The position numbers and the translations under genes were made by a program. This document shows positions 2,690-20,916 of a DNA stretch of 64,000 bases, piece by piece. The DNA is from Bacteroidales bacterium (lineage in GTDB: Bacteria > Bacteroidota > Bacteroidia > Bacteroidales > UBA7960). The notes under the pieces were generated by a model. That model worked only from the letters and a program-made list of their open reading frames with translations, ran no database searches and had not been told where the DNA came from. The DNA is taken from NCBI GenBank assembly GCA_035477775.1, contig DATIKH010000133.1:49673-113672 (forward strand), read 5' to 3'. Position 1 is the first letter of the stretch, and the number at the start of each line of letters is the position of its first letter.

Positions 2690-5164
2690 CTATTTTACTA
2701 CCTGAAGGCGTTTGGTATGTAAACCCGTCTGGGTTTTAATCTGTACAAAATAAATACCGTACTTCAGGTCGCCTACATTTACCAAATGGTTATTTCCTGA
2801 GGCCGTTGCGGAATAAACTACCTGACCGAGCATGTCGATTATGCGAACCTCACTGATCATTTCGTTTGCTGCAATGTTGAGTACCGTCCTGGCAGGATTT
2901 GGAAATAAATTAATAGCAGTAGCTGTTTCGGTAATAACAGGCACTGCGGTGGCGCCGGGCTGCGAGCCGAACACATCATTCACCGTCATAGGACCGGTTA
3001 CAATTACCTGGCGGTTGGGTTCTCCTGGCCATTCGCCCGCATTCCAATTTGCTGCATTAAAGTATTTGTATTGGTAGGTGCCGGCTGGGAGATTGAGTCT
3101 CTTTGAAAAAAAGAAAACATTCTCAGGATCGGCATCCATACTTTGAAGTGCGGGGATTTCGCCAGGTCTTGCCCAGTTAATGCCCGGGAAATTTCCTGTG
3201 ATAAAGATGGTATTGCCCCCAGGTATAAAACCTGGCATGTGCCGAATGTCAACCCTGAATGTAACCTCGTGTCTGATTTGGGTAAGGGTAACATTTACAG
3301 TTCGGTCGGCACCTGAAACAACAACCTGTCCCGAAGCACTTTGGTAACCATCTCTGGAAATGGTAAACTGATGGGTGCCATTGGGCAAGGCAACAACATA
3401 TACTCCGGGTTGCTGCGCAACTCCATTAATACTTACTGTTGCTCCAGCCACATTGGCGTTATCCTGGTCTCTCACTACAAATGTAACATTATAGAAAACC
3501 ACCACGGGCAGGGAAAGGCCTTGGGTTATCAGCCAGTTGTTGGGCGAGACCGGGTTGTTGTTTGCAAGCCTTGAGCGGCTTATCATATGGGGCTGGTTGT
3601 TGGTAACTCCATAGAACCAGGTGCGGCCATCGCTGTCGGCATCTACAGCCATCCAGCCCTGAGGCAGCCAATCGGGGTTTATGGGCGAAACATTGCCTGC
3701 GCTAAAGTCTTCTGACAAAATCTGTGCCGGGGTGTCGCCGGTTCTGGTTGCAATAACTCCAACATTGTCGATAACCAGGCGCTCCATGCCGGTTACGTTG
3801 TGGTGGCGGAATGCGACCCTCACATCGGAGCTGTGAAACCCCGAAATATCGACCGAGCGTCTCTGGTAAATAAAGGGTTCGACCGTGGTGCCTAAGGTTT
3901 CTTCAAATACTTTCACAAAATCTGCCTCGTTGAAAGTATATGCTCCCGCCGGCACCCTGGCTACCCATACGCTGTAATGCTCCCTTCGAAGCAGGGGATC
4001 GGTAGCCGTTGATGCAACATCCCACGATAGATTAATGTTGTTGAAGAGGCCCGGATCCCTGATCATTTCAACATTTACAAAAACGTTTCTATCCACCACT
4101 GTTACAATGCCCTGGGTTGGATAGAAACCTGATCGGGAAACGGTAAAAGGATAGAAGCCCGGTGCGGCATTGAAGGTGTATTGCCCTGCCGGCCTGGCCA
4201 CTCCATCAATGGTTAATACGGCGTCGGTAATCAGTTCGCCTCCAGCATCAGCTACTGTAAAGGTTACCAAAAACTGAGGGTCGGTACCGGCTGTGAGGGT
4301 TACCGGAATGGTGAAGTTTGCAGTATCGACCAAAAATGTGCCGGTGCCGCTAACATAGCCGGTTTTCTGCACGAAATACCTGAATTCGCCGGGGAAAAGC
4401 TTGAAGTTGTAGGTACCGGCGGGATATTCTTTGCCATTGAGTGCAATGACGGCATCGGCTATTGCCCCTGCGGCGTCGGCCACCGTAAAGTTAACATCAA
4501 ACCTATCGACAATGCGTAAATCGTCGAAATACACTGTGCCGGTAACGCCGGCAGCTTGTCCGCTCCATGCCAACTGGAAGCTGTCGAAAAAAATATGTGT
4601 TCCATCCCATATTCCATTTCCGTTTACCCATCCAATTACCTGATCCTCAGGCAGGCGCCATGTAATTCGCCTCCAGCCTGTCCAGTCGATGGTAAACCAC
4701 TGCGAACCTTCCAGATGATTGTTTCCTGCCTCCCTGGTCATAAACCGAAATTTGTTTCCGGATCCATCGCCATAAACAAATACTTCTATGGCCTGGTGAC
4801 GTAAAAACGTGCGTTCCACTACATTTGCATTGCTTGCCGGGATGTGCTGCCTTATAAGGTGGCTTCCGGGTGCAACAGGTCTGGCAGGATCCCACCGGTA
4901 AGTTAACCTCATTGAACCGGTACTGCGAGTAGCAGGGTTAACGACTATAGTATCGCGGGCCATGACGGTTGCCGGAGCCCCTTCATGCTCAAGAATGATG
5001 CCTACGGTACTTCCGCTCCCCTGGGGGAGCCACCAGAGTGTAACGCCAGTTTCAAAATTGTCGATTGACCTGAAATTGGGGTTTGAACCACTTGCAGGGC
5101 CAGCAAGACTGATAAAGAAGAGGGCAAGCATTGCTGCCGGTAAGAAAGTAATCCTTGTTTTCAT
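2690..5164 (-). CDS. T9SS-sorted modular protein with no recognisable catalytic domain (beta-sandwich module shared with the neighbouring amidase, 3 CarboxypepD_reg/PEGA-like repeats, permuted cleaved-adhesin-like domain, CBM20/48-like module, T9SS CTD)
   Basis: The ORF track gives 2690..5236. I trimmed the start to the ATG at 5164 (MKTRITFLPAAMLALFFISLAGPASG, a signal peptide) because 5213..5237 is the terminator stem of the upstream gene. Domain reading is by eye. HEVTFRVDIRHMPGF..TIFITGNFPGINW..PAGTYQYKYF..WPGEPNRQV resembles starch/glycogen-binding E-set modules (tentative). Confidence 0.85.
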   Translation of the reverse strand: MKTRITFLPAAMLALFFISLAGPASGSNPNFRSIDNFETGVTLWWLPQGSGSTVGIILEHEGAPATVMARDTIVVNPATRSTGSMRLTYRWDPARPVAPGSHLIRQHIPASNANVVERTFLRHQAIEVFVYGDGSGNKFRFMTREAGNNHLEGSQWFTIDWTGWRRITWRLPEDQVIGWVNGNGIWDGTHIFFDSFQLAWSGQAAGVTGTVYFDDLRIVDRFDVNFTVADAAGAIADAVIALNGKEYPAGTYNFKLFPGEFRYFVQKTGYVSGTGTFLVDTANFTIPVTLTAGTDPQFLVTFTVADAGGELITDAVLTIDGVARPAGQYTFNAAPGFYPFTVSRSGFYPTQGIVTVVDRNVFVNVEMIRDPGLFNNINLSWDVASTATDPLLRREHYSVWVARVPAGAYTFNEADFVKVFEETLGTTVEPFIYQRRSVDISGFHSSDVRVAFRHHNVTGMERLVIDNVGVIATRTGDTPAQILSEDFSAGNVSPINPDWLPQGWMAVDADSDGRTWFYGVTNNQPHMISRSRLANNNPVSPNNWLITQGLSLPVVVFYNVTFVVRDQDNANVAGATVSINGVAQQPGVYVVALPNGTHQFTISRDGYQSASGQVVVSGADRTVNVTLTQIRHEVTFRVDIRHMPGFIPGGNTIFITGNFPGINWARPGEIPALQSMDADPENVFFFSKRLNLPAGTYQYKYFNAANWNAGEWPGEPNRQVIVTGPMTVNDVFGSQPGATAVPVITETATAINLFPNPARTVLNIAANEMISEVRIIDMLGQVVYSATASGNNHLVNVGDLKYGIYFVQIKTQTGLHTKRLQVVK
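2693..2923 (-). other. Type-A T9SS C-terminal sorting domain (Por_Secre_tail)
   Basis: The C-terminal ~77 aa read INLFPNPARTVLNIAANEMISEVRIIDMLGQVVYSATASGNNHLVNVGDLKYGIYFVQIKTQTGLHTKRLQVVK. This is the canonical (F/Y)PNPA ... G.Y ... K.. pattern. Confidence 0.85.
3281..3496 (-). repeat. Third copy of an intragenic ~70-aa CarboxypepD_reg/PEGA-like repeat
   Basis: YNVTFVVRDQDNANVAGATVSINGVAQQPGVYVVALPNGTHQFTISRDGYQSASGQVVV aligns by eye with the two copies at 4064..4501. Confidence 0.65.
4064..4501 (-). repeat. Two tandem ~70-aa CarboxypepD_reg/PEGA-like repeats
   Basis: FDVNFTVADAAGAIADAVIALNGKEYPAGTYNFKLFPGEFRYFVQKTGYVSGTGTFLV is followed by FLVTFTVADAGGELITDAVLTIDGVARPAGQYTFNAAPGFYPFTVSRSGFYPTQGIVTV. 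Shared pattern: .V.FTVAD..G..I.DAV....G...PAG.Y.F...PG.....V...G(Y/F). Confidence 0.7.
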
Positions 5165-5204: not shown

Positions 5205-5237
5205 AAAAAAAAGGTGAGAGATGTCGAATCTCCCACC
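5205..5237 (-). terminator. Rho-independent terminator downstream of the amidase gene
   Basis: The minus-strand RNA reads GGUGGGAGAU-UCGAC-AUCUCUCACC followed by U8 (plus-strand A8 at 5205..5212). The stem is 10 bp; the single plus-strand mismatch becomes a G-U pair on the transcribed strand. It starts 12 nt after the TAA at 5250..5252. Confidence 0.75.
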
Positions 5238-5249
5238 TCCCTTTGAGAA

Positions 5250-8200
5250 TTATTTTATTATTTGTATGCGGCTTTGTTTCCAGCCACCATTGCCCAAAAT
5301 TCTGACAATGTAGGTACCCAGGTCAAGCTCCTGGATATTTATCCTGATTTGATTGCCAAAGGGCTCGCGCGATAACACCATCCGCCCATCCATTGCATAC
5401 ACTTCGACCCTTTTTATAATTTCATCAGAAACAATTGTGATGTAACTTCTGGCGGGATTAGGAAAGACTCTAAAACCTGACGGATCGGGCTCTGCAATAT
5501 TGGTAACATTGGGCCTGACTGTAACGGTTGCATTAACCACCAACGGGATTTCGGGGGTAGTCTGAGCAACCAAAGCCGGAAGCACGAATGTGCCGGTAGC
5601 GGTGTAGTTGCCTTCTAAGGCAGGGTTGTAACCTGCAATACTCCAGGTTAAGGCAACCAGGTGTGAGTTTCCGAACGAATCTAAAATGGTGGTGCTGGGC
5701 TGCAACTCGCTCAGGACAGTCGACTCAGGGGTGCCAAATGCCACAGAAACATTTTCGACCGGGGTAATGGATGCCAAAACCGGTGTTTGTCGAAGCACTT
5801 CCACCTGGTCGAGCATCAGCATATAACCGTCGTCAGAAACGTATTGTATTGCAATCCGGATAACCTGGCCTGCATACCTTCCGAGGAAGTACGAAAACGG
5901 CGTCCATTCTGGCGGGGCCTCAACATGATTTCCCGGAGATTTGAGAATAAAGGATGCCGGGTTGAATGAAAATGCTTGATTGTTATCGACCGATACCAGA
6001 ACCCTGAATTGCTCAAGGCCCCTTGGGCTTGTTTTAGACTTGGCAAAAAACCGAAGTACACTGTTTTCAGTTGCTCTGATTTGCCTGGAAATCAACCACT
6101 TATTATTAACAGTGCCGGTCTGACCCGCCATGGCAATCAGGTACTTGGCGCCATCAACCGGCGGGTGGTTTTCAACAATTGGTTCGGGAGTGGTCAGGGC
6201 AGGGTTCATAACCTTGAATGCGAAAGGGGTTCCTGCTCCGGGAAAAATAAACCCTACGGGATAATTAGTGGGTTGAGCATGAACATCTGCGGTTCGCCAG
6301 GGAAGTAGATCGGTTGTAAAGTTTTCATAGGTTTCGAAGCCTTCCAACAGGGTTGTTGGGAAATTTGGCGGGGAGCGTTTTACATGCCTCAGGTCATCAA
6401 AGAAAATTGAACCCCTGAGGTTTGCTCCGGGCGCATGCCTTAAATGAAATCCATCAATAAAAAAGTTACTGCCTTCAAGAATACCATTTCCGTTTACCCA
6501 ACCAAAAACCGGATCGCGCGAAAGATCCCATGAAACAAGTTTCCATCCCACCCAGTTTATGGGTATCCAGGCACTTCCTTCTAGATGATTCAGTCCGTCG
6601 CGAATCATTAACCTGAGCTCGTTGCCCGAACCATCGCCAAAAACAAACACCTGAAGCACATCGCTATTAGTGAACCTAATGGCATTTTGATCGGCTCCTG
6701 GCGGAATATGCTGCCTGATGTAAGGTGTTCCTGCAAACCCTTCCATCCAGGCATAATCCAGGCGCATGCTACCTGTGCTTCCGGTGGTGTGGTTTACGGT
6801 ACTTATATTGTGAAACCTTCCGGTGAGTTCGGTTACTATACCTGCAGTTTGCCCTGCCTGTTGGGGATTCCACCAACTTACTATGCCTGCATCGAACGCA
6901 TCAATGGTGGTTTTTTGGGTAATGGCCTGCTCGATCAGGTAAAAATTAAAGGTAAAAGCCTCTGTGAGGTTGTTGAAAGCATCGGAAAGTCCGGCGGCAA
7001 CATGTACCTTGTAAACCAAAGAAGGATTGAGGTCTTGGGTAGGGAAAAACTGCAAAACACTCCGCCCGTTTACAATACTGTGGCGGATCACACCAGGAAC
7101 TGGAGCCCCACCATTAGCCGGTGCAAGGGTAATGGTTTGAGCGCCAATACCCGCTTCAAGGACTGGTTCGTTGTAAACCAGCCTTATAATCGGCCTCAAT
7201 ACTCTGGCCGGCTCTTTTTCGGTCGGCCAGGAATCAACCAACATGGCAGGTGTATTATCCTGTTCGGCAGTGGTAAAGGAAATCACAAAATCGCCTCCTT
7301 CAAGTCCATTATTATCGCCATCGAGAAGCTGCCCGGTAAGCAATCCCCTTGCTATGCTTCCATCAATTCTAAGCTCATAATTGGTAACATAGTTTAGCTG
7401 AGCAGTATTGATTACCAGAGTAAATTCATCTGTCCAAGAATATGACAGAGCTGCATTCGGGGTAATTCTAATGGCATCAAGAACGCTTTGCTGATTCATT
7501 TTCCGACTGAAACGGATACTTACGGGGGTGCCCGGAACCAGGCCGGTCAACTGCCCTGCAGGCAATACTCTTTCAACCACAGGAGCCTTTGTTGAAGTAA
7601 GGAAAACATCCAGAAAACTCAGGTTTTGGGCAATATTGCCATTCGGGTTGGAGGCAATTACCAGACTGGTATCTAAAGGTTGAAAATAATCCGACGAGAA
7701 AACCACATTTACGGTTGATAAAGGCTCGAGGTTTTCGATAAAGAAAAAACCATTGCTCAGCAGTGAAGGGTCGTTGGTGAATCTGTGAAACAACGACTCA
7801 AAGGAATCGGTAACATATGTCTGATTACCGATTGTTACAGTAATTCCGTTGAGCGGTCTGTTGGTTTCGATATCTCTGATAAAACCAGTAGCAACACCAA
7901 TTGCGGGTTTTTGAAGGTTATGAAATTCAAGTATTGACCAGAGTGCTGCCAGTGCTTCCAATTTTTTCCATTCGGCATTCATGTTGCGCTGGTTCTGGGT
8001 GGGGTTTGTGTGAAAGCCCGCCTCGCTGAGCAACGATGCCATTTGCGAAACCCTGTTCACAAATAAAAAAGGAAATTGGTTTGTGTGGGTTGGTATGTTT
8101 CCTTGTAAAAAAACCCGGTCGGCAAAATTACCTGTAGTGGGTATGCGCATTGCCCCGGGAAGGTGTACATTCTTCAATGCACCGAATGCGGCTCCGCCTT

Positions 8201-8651
8201 GAGGTGTTTTCTCAATGGTAACTCCGTTATTGTTCCAACCTCCGTAAAGCATCAAGGTTCTATTAACCTCAGGAGCCCCGGCATCGCTATGAATTGATAA
8301 ATAAAAGTCGACACCCAGGCTGTTTGCCCTATCAACGCGAGCTGTAAGGGTAACATTTTCCTGATCGTTGTTTCGGGCCAGATAAACCGCTTGAATGTCG
8401 GTATATTTTAAAAGATAATCGCGCAGTGCAAAGCCTACCCTTAATACTTTTTCGGATTCAGAGTAACCAAACACACCCATGTTCTCAAATTGCGAGTGCC
8501 CTTGGTCAATGAAAATTGTCCAGTTGTTAAGGCCCGTTATCCGTTGGACTTGAGCGGATCTGGCAGGCGCAATGGTGGCATAAACCAGCAGTGCTACAAT
8601 CAGGATTCCAATCCGGTTAGGCCTTTTAATAAATGCCACCATAGTTTGCAT
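5250..8651 (-). CDS. T9SS-sorted N-acetylmuramoyl-L-alanine amidase (Amidase_3 family) with Ig-like, shared beta-sandwich, choice-of-anchor-J-like and T9SS CTD modules
   Basis: N-terminal signal peptide. Residues 45-243 (7923..8519) carry the Amidase_3 landmarks: IFIDQGHSQ (Zn His), SESEKV (Zn Glu), FYLSIHSDA (Zn His) and ASLLSEAGFHTNP (catalytic Glu block). Two SbsA-type Ig-like domains lie at about 6936..7589. The module shared with the downstream gene is at 6381..6908. A choice-of-anchor-J-like domain lies at 5793..6353 (NKWLISRQI ... IRIAIQYVSDDGYMLMLDQVEV). Confidence 0.85.
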   Translation of the reverse strand: MQTMVAFIKRPNRIGILIVALLVYATIAPARSAQVQRITGLNNWTIFIDQGHSQFENMGVFGYSESEKVLRVGFALRDYLLKYTDIQAVYLARNNDQENVTLTARVDRANSLGVDFYLSIHSDAGAPEVNRTLMLYGGWNNNGVTIEKTPQGGAAFGALKNVHLPGAMRIPTTGNFADRVFLQGNIPTHTNQFPFLFVNRVSQMASLLSEAGFHTNPTQNQRNMNAEWKKLEALAALWSILEFHNLQKPAIGVATGFIRDIETNRPLNGITVTIGNQTYVTDSFESLFHRFTNDPSLLSNGFFFIENLEPLSTVNVVFSSDYFQPLDTSLVIASNPNGNIAQNLSFLDVFLTSTKAPVVERVLPAGQLTGLVPGTPVSIRFSRKMNQQSVLDAIRITPNAALSYSWTDEFTLVINTAQLNYVTNYELRIDGSIARGLLTGQLLDGDNNGLEGGDFVISFTTAEQDNTPAMLVDSWPTEKEPARVLRPIIRLVYNEPVLEAGIGAQTITLAPANGGAPVPGVIRHSIVNGRSVLQFFPTQDLNPSLVYKVHVAAGLSDAFNNLTEAFTFNFYLIEQAITQKTTIDAFDAGIVSWWNPQQAGQTAGIVTELTGRFHNISTVNHTTGSTGSMRLDYAWMEGFAGTPYIRQHIPPGADQNAIRFTNSDVLQVFVFGDGSGNELRLMIRDGLNHLEGSAWIPINWVGWKLVSWDLSRDPVFGWVNGNGILEGSNFFIDGFHLRHAPGANLRGSIFFDDLRHVKRSPPNFPTTLLEGFETYENFTTDLLPWRTADVHAQPTNYPVGFIFPGAGTPFAFKVMNPALTTPEPIVENHPPVDGAKYLIAMAGQTGTVNNKWLISRQIRATENSVLRFFAKSKTSPRGLEQFRVLVSVDNNQAFSFNPASFILKSPGNHVEAPPEWTPFSYFLGRYAGQVIRIAIQYVSDDGYMLMLDQVEVLRQTPVLASITPVENVSVAFGTPESTVLSELQPSTTILDSFGNSHLVALTWSIAGYNPALEGNYTATGTFVLPALVAQTTPEIPLVVNATVTVRPNVTNIAEPDPSGFRVFPNPARSYITIVSDEIIKRVEVYAMDGRMVLSREPFGNQIRINIQELDLGTYIVRILGNGGWKQSRIQIIK
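5253..5480 (-). other. Type-A T9SS C-terminal sorting domain
   Basis: FRVFPNPARSYITIVSDEIIKRVEVYAMDGRMVLSREPFGNQIRINIQELDLGTYIVRILGNGGWKQSRIQIIK. Confidence 0.85.
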
Positions 8652-8664
8652 TTTTGTTTGTTAT

Positions 8665-9624
8665 CTATTGGATGTTAATTACATAAATACTTCCGGATTT
8701 ATGATTTTCAAAAGCAATTTTTTTTCCGTCGGGCGAAACCGATGGGCTCATTGCAATTATATCGGTATTTGCAGTAAGCAGGAATTCCTGGCCTGTTTGA
8801 GGGTCAACGGCAAAAAGATCGCTTTGGGTAATCTGATAACCATCGTCCTTAGTAATCATTACAATAAGGTATTTACCATCGGGGGTCCATCGTGGGCGCT
8901 CTCCCCTACCAATTTGTTTCAACCCGGTGCCATCGGTGTTCATAACAAAAAGGCCCTGAGCAGACACCTGAAAGGCCAGCCTGCTGCCATCAGGCGATTT
9001 TACAACATTAAAAATGGCATTGTCTCCGAAATCGGCCATAACCCGGATATCAATATTGTCGGTGCTGCCTTCGAGAACCTTCCCTTCGATCGAAAAAGCA
9101 ACCGGAGTTTCGGGCCTTTCGATAGGAACAGCCAGAGGTGCCTTGCCACTTTCTATCCATTGAATTCGCCCATCAATTACTACCCCCAGATGCAGGTCTT
9201 GATGCGTCCAGAGGGGAAGACCTTGAATGCCCCGCTGGGGTTTCGTCATGGCGTGGCTTTCGCCGGTTTCGGCATGTATTATTTCAATCCATTGATGACG
9301 CAGGTCATTAATATAGCCGGAGGCGCGTGCAAGCAGGGTTTTGCCATCTGACGACCAGGAGAAACCAAAGCCCACCCCATCGCGATCAGAAATCTGCCTT
9401 AAACCACTACCATCGGCCATTGCCACCCACAAGCCCTTGTGTTTTTCGGAAGAAAAGGCAATGTACTTCCCATCGGGCGACCATACGGGATGGAGCCAAA
9501 TCCTTTCACTTGCAGGAATCAACTCCCAAGGTTCACCAACAACAACCGGCTGAGCTCTGGAAATCGAACTCAAAACCAAAATAAGCATGGCTGCCGGCAA
9601 AATTATCAAAACACTTTTTCTCAT
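8665..9624 (-). CDS. Exported TolB-like beta-propeller protein (PD40/WD40-like repeats)
   Basis: Signal peptide MRKSVLIILPAAMLILVLSSISRAQP. The PD40 signature recurs: WSPDGKYIAFSS, WSSDGKTLLARA, SPDGSRLAFQV, WTPDGKYLIVM, VSPDGKKIAFEN. Its stop is 13 nt from the amidase start. Confidence 0.7.
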   Translation of the reverse strand: MRKSVLIILPAAMLILVLSSISRAQPVVVGEPWELIPASERIWLHPVWSPDGKYIAFSSEKHKGLWVAMADGSGLRQISDRDGVGFGFSWSSDGKTLLARASGYINDLRHQWIEIIHAETGESHAMTKPQRGIQGLPLWTHQDLHLGVVIDGRIQWIESGKAPLAVPIERPETPVAFSIEGKVLEGSTDNIDIRVMADFGDNAIFNVVKSPDGSRLAFQVSAQGLFVMNTDGTGLKQIGRGERPRWTPDGKYLIVMITKDDGYQITQSDLFAVDPQTGQEFLLTANTDIIAMSPSVSPDGKKIAFENHKSGSIYVINIQ

Positions 9625-9662: not shown

Positions 9663-12038
9663 TTAGTTCACTTTCATGACTTTAAAAGTCATCACCTTTC
9701 CACTTTGGGTAATTACGGTTCCGATGTAGAACCCTACCGGCAAACCTTCAAGCGACAATTCATCCAGTCGGGTATCCTCACCGCGTTCAACCTGCCACAT
9801 TTTTTGTCCGGAAGTATTAAACAGCGAAATTGTACGTCTGCCTAAATTTTGGGGGTAAGTCAGGAAAAACCTGGTGGTTGCCGGATTTGGATAGACTCTC
9901 AATGAAATGGGGTCAATATCCTCAACCGATAATGCCGCAGTAGTGGTAAACTGCACAACCGGCGACCATTGCCCCCGGCCGCAGGCATTGATGCCAGCCA
10001 CCCTGAGATAATGCGTGGTGTTGGGTGCCTGCAGGGTAATATTAGACATATTTTGGGTAAGATTCGGGCGGTCAATAATCAGTGAACCTTGACCAAATAA
10101 GGGATCTTGCGAAACCTGCAGATGGAAATTGGTGGCTTCGGGTAAATGCTGCCATTGAGCCACCGATGTAAAGTTTACGTTTTGCTGGCCGCTTAAAGGG
10201 TTATTAATAGCCGGGGTTGAAGGAAAACCGGTATTAAAGCGATCGATCAATGAATAGGAAACGGTCCTGTTATTGATGGCTTTTACCCGGTAAAAATACG
10301 TTTTCTGACCCTCAAACCATTGGCTGTTGATGTTAAAAAAGCGCTGGTCGATTGTGTCTGTCTCAAACTTAAGCAACGATGATGCACTCGGGCCATCAAA
10401 TACCATTAAACTATATCGACTGATTCCGGGTATTTCGTTCCAGATAATTTGATTGCCTTCGCACAAGGTTGCTCCGTTGTGTAGTGAAAACGTCGGTGGG
10501 TTTATATGAATAAATTCAATAAAACCTGAATTTTCGCCAATGGTCTTGTTTCGAGCATATTCGGCTACTGCCAGATATCGGAAATTACGTTGCATATTCA
10601 GGCTGAATCTATTGCCAAAAGCCACCTGCAAGAATTGAGGATTTACCAAGTTATTCATTGCATCCGGAGGCTCATTGGATCCGAACAAAAGAAAGCGATC
10701 GGCATTTGAATCCATATTAAGTACGACCAACTCGTTGTCGTCGGCTATTGAACCAACATCAATGATTCTGGGCTTCCTGAGAGTCGGAGCTGGCAACCAA
10801 CTGGCGACCGGTAAAATAGTCTTTTGGGAAAATAAATCACTCCTAAGATGGCCAGCTAAATTCTTGCTGAGGTTTAGCAAGCCGCTGGTATGAAAAAAAA
10901 TATAACCGGGAGCATTATTGGCAGGGTTATTCCTGTGGGCAATAATTTGGTTTCCGATTTCAGTTACAGGCCAGTTTAACGCGTCATAAAGGCGATACGA
11001 TCCAAGACTTGGATAATGGTGGCGTCCGAAGCGACGAGCCTGCTCGCCCCACCATGCATCAAGTGCGATGAAGTCCTGCCCGCCCCCAATAGGCCAATAC
11101 AGTTGCGGAGAGAGATAATCAATATAGCCATGCTTTAACCATGCCAGAGGGTCGGCGTTAATGGTTGACCAATTGTTCGCGCCGGTTATTCCCGGAGGCA
11201 GGGTGGTGCCATAAAACTGAGCTACCAAATGGTTGGTAGTGTAGATGCCTGCCGGACTAACTCCAAACAACAGCGAAGGGTTGATAGATTTTATAGTGTC
11301 ATTGACTTCCCTGATCATATTGTTTACCGAGGCCCTGCGGAAATCGCCGCGCGTAAGGGTTGTAAACAATGGTCCATGATAATAACGCCTTATAAAAGCT
11401 TCGTTGCCAAAAGCATCGAAGGTATGTTGGTCGAGGTTTAATGGCATGTTGACGGGATAAAAATAATCATCGAAAATTATTCCATCAACGTCGTAATTAT
11501 GCACAATATCGGCAACAATGTTTTTAATTATTTGGGTTGTTTCAGGATGGCCGGGGTCGAGAATGGTACTGTTGTTGAAGTTGATAACCAGGTGTGGGTG
11601 GGTCCGGGCATAATCGCCGGGGAGGCCTGCGAAACTTCCGGTAACACTTTCGAACCTGTATGGGTTGAGCCATGCATGAAGCTCCATTCCTCTTTGGTGT
11701 GCCTGTTCAATGGCAAATTGCAAAGGGTCATACCCTGGATACTGCCCCCTTGAGGCAGACGAAGTACCCAGAAGATGTGACCACGGCTCGTGGGCCGAAT
11801 GGTAAAAAGCATCGGCAAAGGGCCTTACCTGAAAAAACACCACATTGACATTGGCGGCCTCCAACCTGTCGAACATTTGTATAAGGCTGTTCTTTTGGGT
11901 CTGGACCGACCCTACAGGAGGCCAGTCAATGCGCCATGCCGTTGTAAACCAAGTTCCACGTAATTCACGCGCCGGTTGGGTGGCAATGGAAAAAAAGGAA
12001 AAAGGAAAAAGGAAAACAAACAGTAAGAAAATTTTCAT
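9663..12038 (-). CDS. T9SS-sorted glycoside hydrolase-like family 10 (GHL10 / DUF187, YngK-like) protein
   Basis: Signal peptide, then ELRGTWFTTAWRIDWPP ... NVNVVFFQVRPFADAFYHSAHEPWSHLLG ... GYDPLQFAIEQAHQRGMELHAWLNPYRF. These match the GHL10 family motifs as I remember them. Fn3/Ig-like region follows, then a T9SS CTD. Confidence 0.8.
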   Translation of the reverse strand: MKIFLLFVFLFPFSFFSIATQPARELRGTWFTTAWRIDWPPVGSVQTQKNSLIQMFDRLEAANVNVVFFQVRPFADAFYHSAHEPWSHLLGTSSASRGQYPGYDPLQFAIEQAHQRGMELHAWLNPYRFESVTGSFAGLPGDYARTHPHLVINFNNSTILDPGHPETTQIIKNIVADIVHNYDVDGIIFDDYFYPVNMPLNLDQHTFDAFGNEAFIRRYYHGPLFTTLTRGDFRRASVNNMIREVNDTIKSINPSLLFGVSPAGIYTTNHLVAQFYGTTLPPGITGANNWSTINADPLAWLKHGYIDYLSPQLYWPIGGGQDFIALDAWWGEQARRFGRHHYPSLGSYRLYDALNWPVTEIGNQIIAHRNNPANNAPGYIFFHTSGLLNLSKNLAGHLRSDLFSQKTILPVASWLPAPTLRKPRIIDVGSIADDNELVVLNMDSNADRFLLFGSNEPPDAMNNLVNPQFLQVAFGNRFSLNMQRNFRYLAVAEYARNKTIGENSGFIEFIHINPPTFSLHNGATLCEGNQIIWNEIPGISRYSLMVFDGPSASSLLKFETDTIDQRFFNINSQWFEGQKTYFYRVKAINNRTVSYSLIDRFNTGFPSTPAINNPLSGQQNVNFTSVAQWQHLPEATNFHLQVSQDPLFGQGSLIIDRPNLTQNMSNITLQAPNTTHYLRVAGINACGRGQWSPVVQFTTTAALSVEDIDPISLRVYPNPATTRFFLTYPQNLGRRTISLFNTSGQKMWQVERGEDTRLDELSLEGLPVGFYIGTVITQSGKVMTFKVMKVN
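9666..9905 (-). other. Type-A T9SS C-terminal sorting domain
   Basis: SLRVYPNPATTRFFLTYPQNLGRRTISLFNTSGQKMWQVERGEDTRLDELSLEGLPVGFYIGTVITQSGKVMTFKVMKVN. Confidence 0.85.
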
Positions 12039-12106: not shown

Positions 12107-13705
12107 TTATCTTTTAACATGGTCAATTCCAATACCAAAAGGTATTACGCCAGTAACAAAAAACTCAGGTGGGGCCGAACCATCTATTCTGAAACGTTTC
12201 ACCCCAGATCTGGAGCCGTCACCAACAATCTCCCCAAGCAGGTTGATGTCGTCCTGATGCCTGAATGGATAGTAAATATAGCCGCCCTCTGCATCTACCA
12301 CTATGGATGTAATAAAAGTGCGCTCGGCCTCGCCGCCTTGAAGCGAAAATCCTTCTAGGGCATCAATGAGCTGAATGTTCGACCCATCGAGATTGCTTAC
12401 ATATAGTCCAGGATTCAGACCACCGCTGGCATTGTTTATGGCAAAGAAAATTTTCCCGTTTTGGGTATCCACTTCAAAAGTTCTGATTTTGAATGGGAAA
12501 AGGTTGTCGATCCGGGCAATAAACGCCCCTGCCATGGTAAATCTAAATAGACCTTGCCCGGTGCCATGCTTACTGTACCATATTTCGTTATTTACTATCC
12601 TGACGGTTCCATCAGTCCACCCAAATGTACTTGACACATTCAGATTTGCGGCCATTTCTGCAGGTACGTTCCAAACGAATGGGCGGGGATATTCGGCCAA
12701 AACTTCGGAATGATGAATACGGCGTACGCCCTGGAATCGGTCAAGCCAGTAAACAAATCCGTTCTGATCGACAGTCGATACAAACGGATCGTCAATATAA
12801 GTGTGTTCAAGCAGGCTGGGAGCGGTAATTGTATAGCGGTTTGTCCCGGTCAGGGTAGTGGTGAAAATTGAGCCATCGGGTGGCGTTCCGGCTGGAGCAA
12901 ACCTGATGTGATTGCCTGCATCCGAAATAATTAGTCTTTCTCCAAAAACACTAACCGACAGCGGATGCATGCCTACCGAAATTGGCAAGGGTACCAATGG
13001 CGCTACGGCTCCGGTGTAAAGCATTTTTTTGTAAAGGCGCTGAGTTATTGCGTTTGTAATGTAAAGTGTTTTGGCAATTTCGGCTTTTACAGTGACTTGA
13101 ATACTCGTAGAAAGGGTTTCAAGCCCATCGAAAATTGTAACAGTAACCGTGTAAACCCCAGGAAGATTGAACCTGGTTGTGGGCCTGGGTTCGGTCGAAG
13201 TACGGCCGTTACCAAAATCCCACCGAAACGTTACCTGATCGGCTAAATCCGGGTATTGAAAAAACTCCGCCCAAAAAGTTACCTCATCGTTAAACACGAT
13301 TCCTTCAGGATAGAACCTAATTACCGGTTGAGGTTTTATAACCCTAAACTCCCTGGTATGTACAGTTTCTTTTCCTCCGGCAGTAATGGTAAGCGTTGCG
13401 GTATATATTCCCGGCCACGGGTAATACACGCCCTCCGGTTGAATTGCGGTAGTGGTGGAGTCACTTGTTGCCACTCCATTCACAATAATTTGCCCACCTG
13501 GGAAACTCCAATGGTAGGATTCGGCATTCTTGGTCCGGTTAATAAACCTGACTGTTGAAGGAGCGAACAAACGGTCGACATTTTCGATTGTAAAACTGGT
13601 GATCACCTCGCCCCACATCCGTTCATCTTCCTTTTCGCAGCTTATCAAAAGCGCAGCCAACAACAAATATACAGGCCAGATTTTTATGATTTGCTTAGGG
13701 TTCAT
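12107..13705 (-). CDS. Lipoprotein with PKD-like domains and a C-terminal beta-propeller-like region (SusE/F-position candidate surface glycan-binding protein)
   Basis: Lipobox LLAALLISC. PKD-type segments: FAPSTVRFINRTKNAESYHWSFPGG, and VTFRWDFGNGRTSTEPRPTTRFNLPGVYTVTVTIFDG. It sits two genes downstream of susD. Confidence 0.6.
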   Translation of the reverse strand: MNPKQIIKIWPVYLLLAALLISCEKEDERMWGEVITSFTIENVDRLFAPSTVRFINRTKNAESYHWSFPGGQIIVNGVATSDSTTTAIQPEGVYYPWPGIYTATLTITAGGKETVHTREFRVIKPQPVIRFYPEGIVFNDEVTFWAEFFQYPDLADQVTFRWDFGNGRTSTEPRPTTRFNLPGVYTVTVTIFDGLETLSTSIQVTVKAEIAKTLYITNAITQRLYKKMLYTGAVAPLVPLPISVGMHPLSVSVFGERLIISDAGNHIRFAPAGTPPDGSIFTTTLTGTNRYTITAPSLLEHTYIDDPFVSTVDQNGFVYWLDRFQGVRRIHHSEVLAEYPRPFVWNVPAEMAANLNVSSTFGWTDGTVRIVNNEIWYSKHGTGQGLFRFTMAGAFIARIDNLFPFKIRTFEVDTQNGKIFFAINNASGGLNPGLYVSNLDGSNIQLIDALEGFSLQGGEAERTFITSIVVDAEGGYIYYPFRHQDDINLLGEIVGDGSRSGVKRFRIDGSAPPEFFVTGVIPFGIGIDHVKR

Positions 13706-13718
13706 GGCTTATAGTTAT

Positions 13719-14513
13719 TTACTTTATGATTCTGAAATTTCGCGAAGAAGTGGTGCTGGCATTGGTTTTACCGATTACAGCAACTGATTCAATGGTTCCG
13801 CGTGAGTTGTCCTCTACAGTGGCTTCATCTATATGCTGGGCCAACCTTGCTCGGGTAAGGTTGGTGCGTACAAATTCAAACCCGAAAGGTGTGAGGTTTC
13901 CAGTAAATGCGCCTGTTTGTGGATTAAACTCAAAGCATAGAACAGGTGCACCAGGAAACAAGCTTAACACATGGGCCCTGTTCATTTGCAGGCTGAGTTT
14001 TTGTACAATGGCATTAAAAGCTGGGTTGCTCATTTGTTCGATAAGCAACGCACCTGTTGAGGTCAGCATTCCGAATCCACTACCGACGTAGAAAGGGCAA
14101 ATGATCACATATGCGTTTTCAATTGTTTGGTAAAAATCGTTGAGCGATTCACCTGCTCTCGGAAAGGATTCGATCAGGGTTCGCTCAATAAATATTGTAT
14201 CGGTCAGGTGATTAGCCGATAGCCTGACGGTTTGTCCGCTCACGGTAAATGCCATCCTTACCGAAAAATTCTGAATCCTGAATCCCTCGTAAAAGAACGA
14301 AATGGTGCTTATATCGTCGTGCTCCGACCAGCTTACGGTGCGAAGCATAAGGGTGTCGGTTACTTTTGCATCTTGCATTTGGGCAAGCAGGTTAAAAGGC
14401 TTTATTAAGCCTGTGGGGGTGCCCAATTCGGCCAGGTTGTCGTTCTTATCGCAGGAAGCAAAAAAAACACCAATAGCCGCTAATAAAAGAAAAGATTTGA
14501 ATAACATCTTCAT
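13719..14513 (-). CDS. Hypothetical lipoprotein (SusE/F position)
   Basis: The track ORF 13719..14666 overlaps the susD 3' end. An internal ATG at 14513 gives MKMLFKSFLLLAAIGVFFASCDKNDN (lipoprotein signal) and lies 14 nt downstream of the susD stop. I recognise no family motif. Confidence 0.6.
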   Translation of the reverse strand: MKMLFKSFLLLAAIGVFFASCDKNDNLAELGTPTGLIKPFNLLAQMQDAKVTDTLMLRTVSWSEHDDISTISFFYEGFRIQNFSVRMAFTVSGQTVRLSANHLTDTIFIERTLIESFPRAGESLNDFYQTIENAYVIICPFYVGSGFGMLTSTGALLIEQMSNPAFNAIVQKLSLQMNRAHVLSLFPGAPVLCFEFNPQTGAFTGNLTPFGFEFVRTNLTRARLAQHIDEATVEDNSRGTIESVAVIGKTNASTTSSRNFRIIK

Positions 14514-14527
14514 CTTAAAAGGTTTTT

Positions 14528-16009
14528 TTAATTCGACAATGTTGAATTGGCCGACCACCAGAACGGGGTTACAATCCATCTTACATCTCTGGCGCCAAGT
14601 CGGGCAATTTCTCTTGGGTTGAAAATGTATTCTGTTTGAGGGTCGTAGGGCAGACGTTGAATCCATTGCCCGTTGTATTCAGGCAGAGCCCTTTCGGGGT
14701 ATTGAAGACCCGGAAAAACTGAAGGAGAAAACCCGTGACGTCGCATATCCGACCATACCTCTGGTTGCAGATAAAGTGCAATGTATTTTTGCATCATAAT
14801 ATCAGATATTCTCAGTGCTTGGGCACTCTGAGCTACGGCGGGAGAGTTTTTGTATGCCTCAAAATATTGCCCCACACCGAGTCGGTTAAAGTTTCGCCGA
14901 ATTCCGTTCAGGTAAGCCTGAAATGCCCTTTCTCTATTGGGCAAATAAAAAGCTGCCTCAGCCTCTATGAAATACAACTCTTCGTCAGTAATAAAAATAA
15001 TTGGAGAATTGTCACTTGTCCAGTATCCATTATAAAGTATGGCAAAGTCGTCAATACTTAAAGCCCCTATGCCGGTACTTGCCGGAACAGAAGCATAATT
15101 TCCGTTTCGGCCAGGGGTTGTGAGCCTATACAGCCTCGGGTCGCGTTGTCCCGAGAGGTTCATCGCATTCATAAAAAAGGTTGTATGAACTGAGTTGTTA
15201 AGCATATTGCGGATATCGGCAAAGTCCCATTGCGGGCTTGTCCTTGAAGGTCCCCAGGGGTTGATTTCCCATGCATTTGCCGGGTTGTCAGGAAAAGCAT
15301 AAAGAGGTTCTGCCCAATTTGGTCTGGCCAAATCAACCGCATCAAGCACGGCCTGATAGCCCGTTTTAAAATTGGCAGTTCTTAGCAACATTCGGGCACG
15401 TATGGCATGTGCAAAAGCTTTCCATCTGTTTATATTGCCGGCAAAAATATGGTCTTCGGCCTGCGTCATGGCCCTGTCGGTAGGCCTTGACATTTCAAGG
15501 GCCTGAATGCCCTCAAGGAGTAATCTGTCCACTTCGGCATAAACCACATCCTGAGGATCGTAAGTTGGGTTGTGAATGCCTGTAAAGGCCTGAAGAACCG
15601 GCATGTCGCCGAAAAGGTCGGTTGCTGTCAGTGTTGAAAAAGCAAGGATAATTTTGCCCACTCCAATATAATTTTGAGAGCCTTCACTTTCAGCAAAAGA
15701 AATCATTCTGTGCGCGTTTCCGCCAGTATCAAAATAATGGCGCCTCCAAGGGTTAACCCTTAACACCCCGCGGTAATCCCAACGGTCCTTTACTGCATTG
15801 GTACCAAATGTGGTTGTAACAAATTGGGTAATATAGGCAGTGGTTTCTCCGTGGGAATAAAGTGAATAAGCCATATTGCCCAGAACGGCCGGCAGCATAA
15901 AGTTTGGGGTAGTTCTTTCGTCGTTGTCAAGGGAGGTGTTTACATCCAGAAAATCATCACAGCCCCAAAAGAAGATGACAGTTATTATAATAAAAAAGTA
16001 TCTCTTCAT
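14528..16009 (-). CDS. susD: SusD/RagB-family nutrient-binding outer-membrane lipoprotein
   Basis: Lipoprotein signal MKRYFFIIITVIFFWGC. The size (493 aa) and TPR-like helical sequence fit the family. It lies 5 nt downstream of the SusC-like gene, the canonical susC-susD pairing. Confidence 0.85.
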   Translation of the reverse strand: MKRYFFIIITVIFFWGCDDFLDVNTSLDNDERTTPNFMLPAVLGNMAYSLYSHGETTAYITQFVTTTFGTNAVKDRWDYRGVLRVNPWRRHYFDTGGNAHRMISFAESEGSQNYIGVGKIILAFSTLTATDLFGDMPVLQAFTGIHNPTYDPQDVVYAEVDRLLLEGIQALEMSRPTDRAMTQAEDHIFAGNINRWKAFAHAIRARMLLRTANFKTGYQAVLDAVDLARPNWAEPLYAFPDNPANAWEINPWGPSRTSPQWDFADIRNMLNNSVHTTFFMNAMNLSGQRDPRLYRLTTPGRNGNYASVPASTGIGALSIDDFAILYNGYWTSDNSPIIFITDEELYFIEAEAAFYLPNRERAFQAYLNGIRRNFNRLGVGQYFEAYKNSPAVAQSAQALRISDIMMQKYIALYLQPEVWSDMRRHGFSPSVFPGLQYPERALPEYNGQWIQRLPYDPQTEYIFNPREIARLGARDVRWIVTPFWWSANSTLSN

Positions 16010-19000: not shown

Positions 19001-19035
19001 ATCAAAAGACCTAAAAAAACAAAGATCTTCTTCAT
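16015..19035 (-). CDS. susC: SusC/RagA-family TonB-dependent outer-membrane transporter
   Basis: 1006 aa. N-terminal carboxypeptidase-regulatory-like domain ITGTVTDALDGTQLIGVTVLIKGTTIGTTTDLEGQFRI. Plug region (VVVTALGIAREERTLTY, IESVTVLKGAAAAALYG). C-terminal beta-barrel ending ...ITFGLNLKF. No N-terminal STN/anti-sigma signalling extension is visible. Confidence 0.9.
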   Translation of the reverse strand: MKKIFVFLGLLIFTTLGLHGQARQITGTVTDALDGTQLIGVTVLIKGTTIGTTTDLEGQFRINASSGDVLVFRFVGMETYETIVGDRTIINVVLQPEAAALQEVVVTALGIAREERTLTYNVQSVDSDAIRASRQENVVNALQGRVSGVQISSTGGAPGSSSEIILRGATSVDGDNQPLFVIDGVPVSNASIRGTTNRIADLNPNDIESVTVLKGAAAAALYGIDAANGAIIITTRRGQEGVVSVGLSTSSTISQVGWLHDTQQFYTTGGAGIFHPRTFSHWGPPLRRSDQVHDNLNNYFQTGMANKIDANVSGGTSKLTYFLSLSSLGDRGIVPNTFFGRNSAFLSGTVNISDRISVTTTSNIVRTNNRLGIFSSSGGWLRDLYRWPVWDNMIDYRNPDGSERNVWIPVSGNLAEVPDNPMWSAFHQVRTDNVSRNINTINLTFQALDWLSFNYTAGRDYFQQHLKSVQEPGSEGTDFEGSISELNRESEKITSTLLAVADNEFTDRLRVTTMVGKNIQSNFARNTSVEGERFRNPALHSINNLRVVRNNQATSNRRIIGVFGNLTIDYDRFLVLNFTGRNDWSSTLPLQNRSFFYPSISTAFIFSELLDGRAARIFSFGKIRASVASVGKDAPPHRLTQTLEQFFGIGGGWRNGAFAGNPLLKPEITREFEIGADLRLWDGLFTIDMTYYNRVSSDQIIQPRVTPVTGAILQAVNSGSVENRGIELLISSRIIRREDLNWEVTLNGFGNRSRLTELFGDLVEFPVTFGQVSTQAIASSWIGKPLFGIVGTDYLRNSEGKVIVDNNGFPRIDNQKRFIGNREPRFYFGLNNNFRFRNLEFSFLVDGTYGAQLLNATRQFLVSTGQHNMVGKYRNQEFIFDGVVELPDGTFAPNTTPVTLDQNFFINNYILAGTNFVEEVFWVRLRNVGLNYFLPNSLIARLGLKEASINISLQNALLLTNYSGGDPEVNNAGPDAGGGSGAGTMGVDFFQVPHGRSITFGLNLKF

Positions 19036-19084: not shown

Positions 19085-19930
19085 TTATTCACCAAGCCTC
19101 TCGTAAGCTTCCAATGCATTTTTTACTGATCCGTACTTTAGCAGCAAATCCCTTGCTTTTACCGAATCAAGGCTAAGTTCTTCCATAAGCATGCGGGTAC
19201 CGCGTAGCACCAACTTTTGGTTTGTAAGCTGCATATTTACCATTTTATTCCCTTTTACCCGCCCCAACTTAATCATTATTGTTGTGGTAATCATGTTCAG
19301 AATCATCTTTTGGGCGGTTCCTGCCTTGAGCCTTGTGCTTCCGGTAACAATCTCGGGGCCTACAATGGCTTCAATAGGGTATTCGGCTTCGCGCGAAACG
19401 AGTGAATTGGGATTGCAGGTAATACATCCGGTAAGAATTCCGTTTTCGCGTGCCTTTCTCAGGCCTCCAACCACATAAGGCGTTGAGCCTGATGCTGCAA
19501 TTCCAATAACTGTGTCGAGCGTATTTATGTTGCGCTCTTTCAGCTCTTCCCAAGCTTTATCCTGGTCATCTTCGGCAGCCTCAACCGGATTTCGCAATGC
19601 CCTGTCGCCTCCGGCAATCAACCCTATAACCAGACCCTGGGGTGCACCAAAAGTGGGCGGAAGCTCCGAGGCATCCAATACACCCAAACGACCACTTGTA
19701 CCTGCACCCAAATAAAAAAGGCGGCCCCCGTTGCGCATTCGCTCAATAATCTGACAAATCAAAGCCTCAATTTGGGGCAAGGCCTTACGCACCGCTATAT
19801 GAACCTTGGCATCTTCGCTGTTGATAGAATCAATTAGCTTCTTCACAGTCATCTTCTCAAGGTTTTCAAATTGCGAAGGCGACTCGGTTATGCTAAGTTC
19901 AAATTTTATTTTTTTATCCCTGCCCGACAT
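19085..19930 (-). CDS. murQ: N-acetylmuramic acid 6-phosphate etherase
   Basis: GGRLFYLGAGTSGRLGVLDASELPPTFG, IGLIAGGDRALRNPVEAAEDD, IGIAASGSTPYV and VTGSTRLKAGTAQKMILNMITT align block for block with E. coli MurQ as I remember it. Confidence 0.93.
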   Translation of the reverse strand: MSGRDKKIKFELSITESPSQFENLEKMTVKKLIDSINSEDAKVHIAVRKALPQIEALICQIIERMRNGGRLFYLGAGTSGRLGVLDASELPPTFGAPQGLVIGLIAGGDRALRNPVEAAEDDQDKAWEELKERNINTLDTVIGIAASGSTPYVVGGLRKARENGILTGCITCNPNSLVSREAEYPIEAIVGPEIVTGSTRLKAGTAQKMILNMITTTIMIKLGRVKGNKMVNMQLTNQKLVLRGTRMLMEELSLDSVKARDLLLKYGSVKNALEAYERLGE

Positions 19931-20790: not shown

Positions 20791-20916
20791 AAAATTTAAA
20801 TCATTAAAATTCTATTCAAAAGTGATAACACTCAGGTTCAAGACCTTCGGCTTGGACGTATTACCAAAGCGCGATAAATGGCTTCAATACTAATATATCT
20901 AACTTTTGCTTACTTG

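Follow-up and report, generated by a model that had tools for sequence, protein, structure and literature searches.

What would a bacterium do with a cell-wall amidase that carries the marks of an exported protein, and whose wall would such an enzyme open? The question is raised by a gene at positions 5250 to 8651 (minus strand) of a 64,000-nucleotide stretch of DNA from a Bacteroidales bacterium (contig DATIKH010000133.1, positions 49,673 to 113,672, of assembly GCA_035477775.1), which we refer to throughout as the window. The gene encodes an 1133-residue protein in which an N-terminal Amidase_3 domain is joined to a C-terminal sorting domain (CTD) for the type IX secretion system (T9SS), and it stands at the end of a cluster of import and sugar-catabolism genes. 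Our reading, to which we assign a probability of about 0.68, is that the product would be a T9SS-exported, extracellular N-acetylmuramoyl-L-alanine amidase that serves as the peptide-stripping enzyme of a peptidoglycan-utilisation locus.

The amidase is encoded by a single open reading frame (ORF), and a protein in the public collection (P0001, 1130 residues) is identical to it from Met4 onward. Scoring of 8000 candidate sequences yielded 381 homologues at E <= 0.001; database annotations of proteins in the family read either 'N-acetylmuramoyl-L-alanine amidase' or 'T9SS type A sorting domain-containing protein'. From the N-terminus to the C-terminus, the gene and the parts of its product run as follows (Ig, immunoglobulin; CBM, carbohydrate-binding module; SPI, signal peptidase I; AF2, AlphaFold2; pLDDT, predicted local distance difference test):

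5250..8651, minus strand: amidase gene, single ORF of 1133 codons with an ATG start
8550..8651, minus strand: Sec (SPI) signal peptide, residues 1-34, read by eye from the translation
7959..8516, minus strand: Amidase_3 catalytic domain, Pfam residues 46-231, with predicted zinc ligands H52, E65 and H121 and catalytic E210
7650..7889, minus strand: transthyretin/CarboxypepD_reg-like beta-sandwich, residues ~255-334, from a sub-cut-off Pfam match and an all-beta AF2 model
6942..7589, minus strand: two Big_5 (SbsA-type) Ig-like domains, residues ~355-570 (PF13205, E = 7e-16, two stretches)
6342..6938, minus strand: CBM-like jelly roll with a WWxPQQ(S/A)G(S/Q)T motif, residues 572-770, from family conservation, AF2 and Foldseek
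5796..6149, minus strand: choice-of-anchor-J/cleaved-adhesin-like jelly roll, residues 835-952 (NF038128)
5472..5786, minus strand: Ig-like beta domain, residues ~956-1060, all-beta with pLDDT >90 (AF2)
5265..5468, minus strand: type-A T9SS C-terminal sorting domain, residues 1062-1129 (PF18962, TIGR04183)

The original prediction, made from the letters of the DNA, had placed an Amidase_3 enzyme with intact metal ligands and catalytic glutamate at the head of this protein, and the closer analysis bears this out. The Pfam profile (PF01520) matches residues 46-231 at 51.9 bits against a gathering cut-off of 27 (E = 1.2e-13), covering profile positions 1-163 of 174. Alignment by phmmer to four solved amidases (3NE8, 4RN7, 5EMI and 4BIN) equates H52 of the motif DQGHS with the first zinc histidine, E65 with the zinc glutamate, H121 of SIHSDA with the second zinc histidine and E210 with the catalytic glutamate; the last of these lies in LLSEAGFHTN, which lines up with LIEIGY, LIECGF and LVETGY of the solved enzymes. 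All four residues are invariant in an alignment of the window amidase with 120 homologues. The motifs that had been singled out beforehand (GHS, SESE, SIHSDA and LLSEAGF) are likewise all present, with one refinement: within SESE the ligand is E65 and not E67, which was considered and rejected because E67 varies among the homologues (Glu in 105, Gln in 13) whereas E65 is retained in 120 of 120. The protein is, on this evidence, apparently an active peptidoglycan amidase.

Structure prediction agrees with this assignment. An AF2 model of residues 33-345 (pLDDT 97) returned solely Amidase_3 structures as its top Foldseek matches (E ~1e-12), and target-normalised template-modelling (TM) scores are highest with enzymes that have no regulatory helix (5EMI, 0.83; 4RN7, 0.84; 1JWQ, 0.85), while those with AmiA, AmiB and AmiC are lower (0.39-0.67). 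The 89-residue segment between H121 and E210 holds an additional beta-hairpin and two short helices (5-6 residues each), without a long helix; an autoinhibitory helix of the AmiB/AmiC kind is not evident in the secondary structure of the model. We infer from the model that the enzyme may be of the helix-less, constitutively open type. Helix-less relatives such as CwlV (1JWQ), Nostoc AmiC2 (5EMI) and the Clostridioides difficile enzyme 4RN7 share its fold, its His-Glu-His zinc site and its catalytic glutamate. The window amidase is nevertheless only 20-23% identical to these three, bears the extra hairpin after H121 and a further segment at residues ~178-200, is fused to ~880 residues of sandwich, Ig and CBM-like modules plus the CTD, and is linked to the gene of a PD40 protein. 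Across solved amidases as a whole, identity of the Amidase_3 domain is 13-23%; the AmiA model scores 21.8 bits against a cut-off of 400 and the AmiC model 21 against 700, CwlD is likewise far below its equivalog cut-off, and a Pfam scan found no AMIN domain in the protein. Judged by sequence, the catalytic domain is a distinct Amidase_3 subfamily, outside AmiA/B/C and CwlD.

Behind the catalytic domain, the original prediction had listed a CarboxypepD_reg-like domain, two SbsA-type Ig domains, a beta-sandwich module, a choice-of-anchor-J-like domain and a type-A CTD, all of which were recovered. The first falls below the Pfam cut-off (16.9 bits against 32.3 for residues 255-334), yet the AF2 model forms a beta-sandwich at residues ~253-345, the weak Foldseek matches of which are carboxypeptidase D and its transthyretin-like domain. 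The two Ig domains correspond to the Big_5 match listed above, and choice_anch_J (NF038128, from NCBIfam) matches residues 835-952 at 49.8 bits against a cut-off of 30. An AF2 model of residues 572-1062 (pLDDT 93.9, and ~97 within residues 572-770) contains two jelly rolls and, after them, an Ig-like domain, and its best matches in the Protein Data Bank (PDB) are the tandem CBM22 pair of Xyn10C, CBM4-2, the cleaved-adhesin domains K1-K3 of gingipain, and FlaA1. The first of these jelly rolls is the predicted beta-sandwich module; named here for its WW motif, it probably targets the enzyme to its substrate. The family core measures ~840 residues and comprises the amidase, the sandwich, the two Big_5 domains, the WW jelly roll and the CTD, to which the 1133-residue form in the window adds the choice-of-anchor-J and Ig modules. 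The choice-of-anchor-J jelly roll, which finds the K1-K3 adhesin domains of gingipain Kgp in Foldseek, is confined to long variants of the family (1130-1290 residues).

Both ends of the protein speak for export. By inspection, the signal peptide has a basic n-region (KRPNR), a hydrophobic core (ILIVALLVYATIA) and a terminal ARSA, with predicted cleavage before QVQ leaving an N-terminal Gln. At the extreme C-terminus, the type-A sorting model TIGR04183 scores 39.4 bits against a cut-off of 23, and Por_Secre_tail (PF18962) matches residues 1062-1129 at 38.6 bits against 27; the type-A CTD is kept in most of the amidase family, including a version from gut bacteria. Two components of the secretion system lie in the same window, ~50 kb from the cargo genes:

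59106-60347, minus strand: PorV, 486 bits against a cut-off of 250
60589-63858, minus strand: PorU sortase, 1220 bits against a cut-off of 420

The amidase thus looks like a type-A T9SS cargo, in keeping with what had been predicted, as far as a Sec signal, a type-A CTD and the presence of PorU and PorV can indicate.

The substrate is suggested by the company that the gene keeps. Nine co-directional minus-strand genes, separated by gaps of 5-68 bp, run from a gene for a MurK-like kinase to that of the amidase, which comes last; one further gene of interest lies at either end (MurNAc, N-acetylmuramic acid):

21443..22672, minus strand: NamZ (GH171) exo-beta-N-acetylmuramidase, NamZ_N 7e-84, NamZ_C 3e-33, with a signal peptide
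19948..20790, minus strand: MurK-like sugar kinase of the BadF/BcrAD ATPase family, matching PDB 8OQW and 8OW9 at E ~1e-75
19085..19930, minus strand: MurQ, MurNAc-6-phosphate etherase, TIGR00274 at 311.9 bits against 302 and NF003915 at 365.9 against 168
16015..19035, minus strand: SusC/RagA-type TonB-dependent transporter, TIGR04056 at 609 bits against 368
14528..16009, minus strand: SusD-like lipoprotein, PF12771 (SusD-like_2), 3e-40
13719..14513, minus strand: lipoprotein without a family match (MKMLFKSF at its start, lipobox FFASC before DKNDN), a candidate surface binding protein, syntenic in 14 genome loci
12107..13705, minus strand: PKD-domain lipoprotein (N-terminal LISC before EKEDE), a candidate surface glycan-binding protein
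9663..12038, minus strand: GHL10 (Cwp19-like) enzyme with a type-A T9SS CTD, 791 residues, PF02638, 3.7e-53
8665..9624, minus strand: PD40 (TolB-like) beta-propeller, 319 residues, SPI signal peptide, stop codon 13 bp before the amidase ATG
5206..5244, minus strand: terminator directly 3' of the amidase stop codon, a 17-bp stem followed by a U-run
2690..5164, minus strand: downstream T9SS cargo, 824 residues, with a WW jelly roll, a cleaved-adhesin/choice-of-anchor-J domain, PEGA, a CBM20-like region and a CTD

The susC and susD genes are 5 bp apart, and by the SusC/SusD criterion the locus is, from its gene content, a polysaccharide utilisation locus (PUL). Both surface lipoproteins carry acidic residues after the lipobox Cys. 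The two PDB entries matched by the MurK-like protein were deposited as 'putative novel MurNAc kinase', which makes it a candidate MurNAc kinase. The GHL10 protein aligns with Cwp19 (5OQ2) at E = 1.9e-66 over ~366 residues; Cwp19 of C. difficile, its nearest known relative, is a GHL10 peptidoglycan lytic transglycosylase (PMC6016235), and the window enzyme, which bears a T9SS CTD where Cwp19 has CWB2 anchoring repeats, is probably a secreted cleaver of peptidoglycan glycan strands.

This gene content points to a division of labour between the outside and the inside of the cell. NamZ enzymes cleave neither sacculi nor peptide-bearing glycan and need prior amidase treatment of their substrate (bioRxiv 10.1101/2021.12.02.470905); in Bacillus subtilis the order of action is NagZ, then the amidase AmiE, then NamZ (10.1101/2021.12.02.470905; PMC8054146). 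The only amidase in the window locus is a T9SS cargo, and so is the only candidate endo-acting glycan cleaver, the GHL10 protein. Since NamZ needs peptide-free glycan, and since the sole amidase and the sole glycan cleaver both bear T9SS signals, stripping and cutting outside the cell is the most economical reading.

We therefore propose the following scheme. The amidase would enter the periplasm by Sec and be directed across the outer membrane by its type-A CTD, to be released there or attached to the cell surface by PorU. In the surroundings of the cell, it would be held on foreign sacculi or wall debris by its CBM-like and Ig modules while the Amidase_3 domain removed stem peptides, and the co-encoded Cwp19-like GHL10 cargo would cut the glycan strands. 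Fragments would be captured by the surface lipoproteins and SusD and imported by SusC, and periplasmic NamZ, accepting peptide-free glycan only, would free MurNAc. After uptake across the inner membrane by a transporter presumably encoded outside the window, the MurK-like kinase and MurQ would turn MurNAc into GlcNAc-6-phosphate (GlcNAc, N-acetylglucosamine) and lactate.

The downstream T9SS cargo adds to this picture. Its N-terminal module is 45% identical to the WW jelly roll of the amidase (residues 572-770; E = 1e-46), and in a related locus (L111) the GHL10 enzyme bears the same Big_5 modules as the amidase. The targeting modules common to these three T9SS cargos fit a single substrate. 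No catalytic domain was found in the 824-residue cargo, of which residues ~226-500 are without a domain match.

The same association recurs in other genomes. A pattern scan restricted to one genome per species found relatives of the amidase in 417 species-level genomes, in taxa that include Bacteroidales, Marinilabiliales, Balneolales, Rhodothermales (Rubrivirga), Ignavibacteriales, Calditrichaceae and others; for comparison of gene neighbourhoods we used the 54 genome loci with at least 15 kb of sequence. The whole arrangement, from SusC and SusD through the lipoprotein, PKD, GHL10, PD40 and amidase genes to the WW cargo, is found in ~14 metagenome-assembled genomes of Bacteroidales. Marinilabiliaceae retain SusCD, PKD, GHL10, PD40 and amidase, and in Rubrivirga and Rubricoccaceae GHL10 adjoins the PD40-amidase pair. 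Many Balneolales loci have NamZ and MurK within 10 kb, some also an AmpG-like transporter of the major facilitator superfamily (MFS), NagZ or AmiC; in 16 of 54 other loci the pair has an AmpG-like MFS gene as a neighbour. Not counting PD40, 45 of the 54 have one or more peptidoglycan-catabolism genes within 10 kb. With a SusC/SusD locus that carries NamZ, MurQ, a MurK-like kinase and a Cwp19-like cargo, and with peptidoglycan-catabolism genes near most related loci, the substrate is probably exogenous peptidoglycan, as the original prediction had suggested; where it had left scavenging and attack on neighbours side by side, the uptake and catabolic context favours scavenging, the two not being exclusive.

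Several observations accompany these comparisons. The lipoprotein at 13719-14513 is not conserved outside the Bacteroidales form of the locus; the ORF called there, of 315 residues (13719-14666, minus strand), overlaps the end of susD, and its true start is likely Met52 (coordinate 14513). In Saccharicrinis carchari (L001, 3322-5775) the PKD and GHL10 genes are separated by the gene of an additional T9SS cargo, which has a NAGPA (phosphodiester glycosidase) domain; one might speculate that it removes GlcNAc-1-phosphate-linked wall polymers from MurNAc.

The most constant neighbour of the amidase is the PD40 gene. All 54 genome loci have it as the next gene upstream, on the same strand, as do three contexts retrieved by exact protein look-up, at intergenic distances mostly between -47 and +140 bp. 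In the reverse direction, we took metagenome loci in which PD40 was matched at orthologue level (at least 115 bits) and sequence continued downstream of it; the amidase follows directly in 44 of these 45, the exception (L112) having a TonB-dependent receptor after PD40. Tandem PD40-amidase pairs occur in seven metagenome loci (L116, L119, L123-L126 and L130), five of them distinct, as L123-L126 are near-identical. Both amidases of the tandem loci retain the catalytic residues, the second pair being strongly diverged, with a 528-residue amidase that has a CTD. The top 120 homologues of the amidase and the top 120 of PD40 include no fusion of the two proteins; the long homologues (P0095, P0093, P0034 and P0003) merely add Big_5 or Flg_new repeats.

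The pair also exists apart from any PUL. In gut Muribaculaceae (Sodaliphilus), a 279-residue PD40 subgroup (P0210, a cluster of 894 members) is followed by an 852-859-residue Amidase_3-Big_5 protein with a type-A CTD, and these genes (L153-L155) lie among housekeeping genes such as lon and groEL. PD40 belongs with the amidase, not with the PUL. In one of these loci (L155) the C-terminus of the amidase gives a dockerin-like match and no clear CTD. A second, very divergent PD40 paralogue occurs between GHL10 and the amidase-linked PD40 in Marinilabiliaceae, Maribellus and Anaerophaga (L025, L028, L032, L044, L046, L048, L090, L091, L104), and might be a partner for GHL10.

What might PD40 do? 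The orthologues inspected carry an SPI-type signal peptide ending in Ala before a mature Gln, and they have neither a lipobox Cys nor a CTD, which excluded PD40 as a lipoprotein or a T9SS cargo; it was excluded as an enzyme by the absence of a peptidase domain and by the nature of its invariant residues, namely structural Pro, Gly and Trp together with an SPDG repeat motif. On these features, we predict PD40 to be a soluble protein of the periplasm without enzymatic activity. Within the scheme set out above, PD40 would most likely hold or neutralise the amidase during periplasmic transit and so spare the wall of the producer. We lean, tentatively and at somewhat short of even odds, towards this general role of self-protection or holding for a folded, unregulated wall hydrolase that awaits T9SS export. 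Its narrower form, in which PD40 is a cognate factor that binds the folded amidase between Sec export and T9SS translocation and keeps it off the cell's own wall, is more doubtful. A co-exported subunit or an activator, by analogy with EnvC, ActH and GerS, seems rather unlikely, and periplasmic handling of products unlikelier still, which leaves a small share for some other role.

Two groups of known proteins offer comparisons. Self-protection for exported wall hydrolases exists in the Tae/Tai pairs of the type VI secretion system and in Bdellovibrio Bd3459/Bd3460; we know of no self-protection pair for a T9SS cargo. As in these systems, a predicted periplasmic protein is encoded beside a putatively exported peptidoglycan hydrolase, with strict linkage and co-duplication; here, in contrast, PD40 is encoded ahead of its enzyme. 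Among enzymes of the same catalytic family, E. coli AmiA, AmiB and AmiC with EnvC or NlpD, LytH with ActH, and CwlD with GerS each have a dedicated protein partner. The window amidase differs from these in having neither AMIN nor, in the model, a long helix, in being predicted to pass the outer membrane, and in that its putative partner is a beta-propeller rather than a LytM, TPR (tetratricopeptide repeat) or lipoprotein partner.

With the pair described, other readings of the amidase can be weighed. The one that survives best, improbable as we hold it to be, is an antibacterial exoenzyme that together with GHL10 would lyse neighbouring cells, mainly Gram-positive ones, with nutrient uptake secondary and PD40 a true immunity protein. 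Two wall-degrading enzymes with T9SS export signals, an amidase of the helix-less, unregulated type, and a periplasmic partner gene strictly linked to and co-duplicated with that of the amidase, like effector-immunity pairs, would all suit this account. The genes, however, sit in an uptake and catabolism locus (SusCD, NamZ, MurK-like, MurQ) and not in a toxin island, and the wall of Gram-negative neighbours would be out of reach for a free amidase. Killing and feeding are in any case compatible, so that the difference from scavenging is mainly one of emphasis.

Less probable again is turnover or recycling of the cell's own wall, either during a periplasmic stage or with the CTD unused, PD40 then being a periplasmic regulator comparable to EnvC/NlpD, ActH or GerS. 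In its favour, the pair in Gracilimonas sediminicola (L067) lies among recycling genes; by Pfam, the neighbourhood comprises NagB/PIG-L, an AmpG-like MFS protein, PD40, the T9SS amidase, an AMIN-Amidase_3 protein, NamZ, a GH3 NagZ and MurK. Dedicated partners are, moreover, common for Amidase_3 enzymes, the structural matches including 8C0J (AmiB-EnvC), 7TJ4 (LytH-ActH) and 7RAG (CwlD-GerS), and PD40 is predicted to be periplasmic. In the same Gracilimonas locus, on the other hand, a separate canonical AMIN-Amidase_3 gene adjoins the pair, and the window locus is a SusC/SusD import locus. Retention of the type-A CTD in most of the family and in the gut version, the presence of PorU and PorV, and CBM-like and adhesin-like modules typical of surface or secreted enzymes also argue against a purely internal role.

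We give very little credence to the idea that the Amidase_3 domain acts on some other lactyl- or amide-linked glycoconjugate, or only binds, since its divergence (13-23% identity to solved amidases, scores far below the AmiA, AmiC and CwlD cut-offs) and its family-specific conserved inserts are set against four invariant catalytic and ligand residues, which argue against a dead domain, and against neighbours specific to MurNAc or peptidoglycan (NamZ, MurQ, MurK-like, Cwp19-like).

Scavenging of foreign peptidoglycan by an exported amidase remains the reading we prefer, and a number of points weigh against it. The Amidase_3 domain contains a conserved insert of its own family at residues ~178-200. 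No inner-membrane transporter for MurNAc or muropeptides (MurT, AmpG, MurP) is present among the window ORFs scanned, and no regulator gene was found in the window locus, the genes from 2690 to 23400 containing no domain of a PUL regulator (hybrid two-component system, extracytoplasmic-function sigma/anti-sigma factor or similar). Peptidoglycan-catabolism neighbours are lacking from nine of the 54 loci and from the versions in gut Muribaculaceae (L153, L155), and the PD40-amidase pair is thus not tied to a PUL everywhere. The Balneolales neighbours (AmpG-like, NagZ, AMIN-AmiC) look like recycling of the cell's own wall as much as scavenging. The role given to PD40 is drawn from localisation signals and gene linkage, and no report of enzymatic activity, secretion or expression was found for any member of the family.

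The NamZ gene lies upstream of the MurK-like gene across a 650-bp, ORF-free, AT-rich region (20791-21442), the probable site of the locus promoter and operator. Rfam gave no match at gathering thresholds anywhere in the window, this region included, and a promoter scan was uninformative (45 sites against 33 expected), the sigma-70 consensus being unsuited to Bacteroidota. At the other end, the terminator behind the amidase has a fold energy of -20.5 kcal/mol (z = -4.66), and none of 200 shuffled sequences was as stable. This strong terminator separates the amidase from the next cargo gene, though that cargo is syntenic in 14 relatives. The GTG start given for the 824-residue cargo by the ORF finder (5236) falls within the terminator hairpin; ATG 5164 is the likely start and gives a signal peptide. 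At 23977-27130 on the plus strand, divergent from the locus on its namZ side, lie genes for an S33 alpha/beta hydrolase and an M13 (PepO-like) metallopeptidase, enzymes that might process released stem peptides. Elsewhere in the window, and not linked to the locus, a 664-residue protein (46490-48484, minus strand) has three LysM domains fused to a Peripla_BP_6-like domain, an uncommon design for a peptidoglycan-binding protein.

How does this design compare with known utilisation systems? The chitin PUL of Flavobacterium johnsoniae, with its T9SS-secreted chitinase ChiA, is reportedly built on the same plan of SusC/SusD import and large multi-modular T9SS depolymerases in one locus; the window locus differs from it in its proposed substrate, peptidoglycan, for which an amidase and a glycan cleaver are both required, and in the PD40 partner. 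The CTD of ChiA is of another type than the type-A domain of the window amidase. Among peptidoglycan systems, one comparison concerns B. subtilis AmiE, which we take not to be an Amidase_3 enzyme. The B. subtilis amiE-nagZ-namZ-murQRP genes are clustered, and the sequence of amidase before NamZ and then MurQ is that proposed for the window locus (PMC8054146; 10.1101/2021.12.02.470905), whereas that operon is Gram-positive and based on a phosphotransferase system, without SusC/SusD, T9SS, GHL10 or PD40. Closer in lineage is the namZ1-murT-murK-murQ-ampG-lytB cluster of Tannerella forsythia, also of the Bacteroidota, which serves the use of exogenous peptidoglycan sugars and shares NamZ, MurK and MurQ (10.1101/2021.12.02.470905). 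As described, that cluster has no SusC/SusD, secreted amidase or T9SS cargo, and the extracellular steps that free MurNAc are not assigned; the window locus, unlike it, is without MurT and AmpG.

Neither the amidase family, nor its pairing with PD40, nor a SusC/SusD peptidoglycan locus with T9SS cargo was described in the full-text literature searched, the coverage of which mostly excludes subscription journals. Three features appear to be new combinations: two wall hydrolases with T9SS export signals, together with a SusCD pair of their own and NamZ, MurK and MurQ; a targeting module common to T9SS cargos; and an obligatory PD40 partner.

Peptidoglycan is among the largest pools of bacterial necromass and an obligate source of MurNAc for auxotrophs such as Tannerella. 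The periplasmic and cytoplasmic steps carried out by NamZ, MurK and MurQ have been characterised, whereas the extracellular enzymes that open the polymeric wall to Bacteroidota have not been assigned; the locus supplies candidates in its T9SS amidase, its T9SS Cwp19-like cleaver, a CBM-like targeting module that T9SS cargos share and its dedicated SusCD pair. Because the locus occurs in cultivable Saccharicrinis, Maribellus, Anaerophaga, Carboxylicivirga and Gracilimonas, these candidates can be tested directly. The linkage to PD40 raises the further question of how a folded, unregulated wall hydrolase can cross the periplasm of bacteria with a T9SS without harming them. Should PD40 prove to be a cognate self-protection or holding factor, type IX secretion would have its first described effector/immunity-like pair, and Amidase_3 enzymes a partner of a new structural class. 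Loci with the PD40-amidase module span Bacteroidota, Balneolales, Rhodothermales, Ignavibacteriales and Calditrichaceae, and in some of them cognate pairs have been amplified. A version of the pair is also abundant in gut Muribaculaceae (Sodaliphilus), where the supply of host-active muropeptides could be influenced by secreted amidases.

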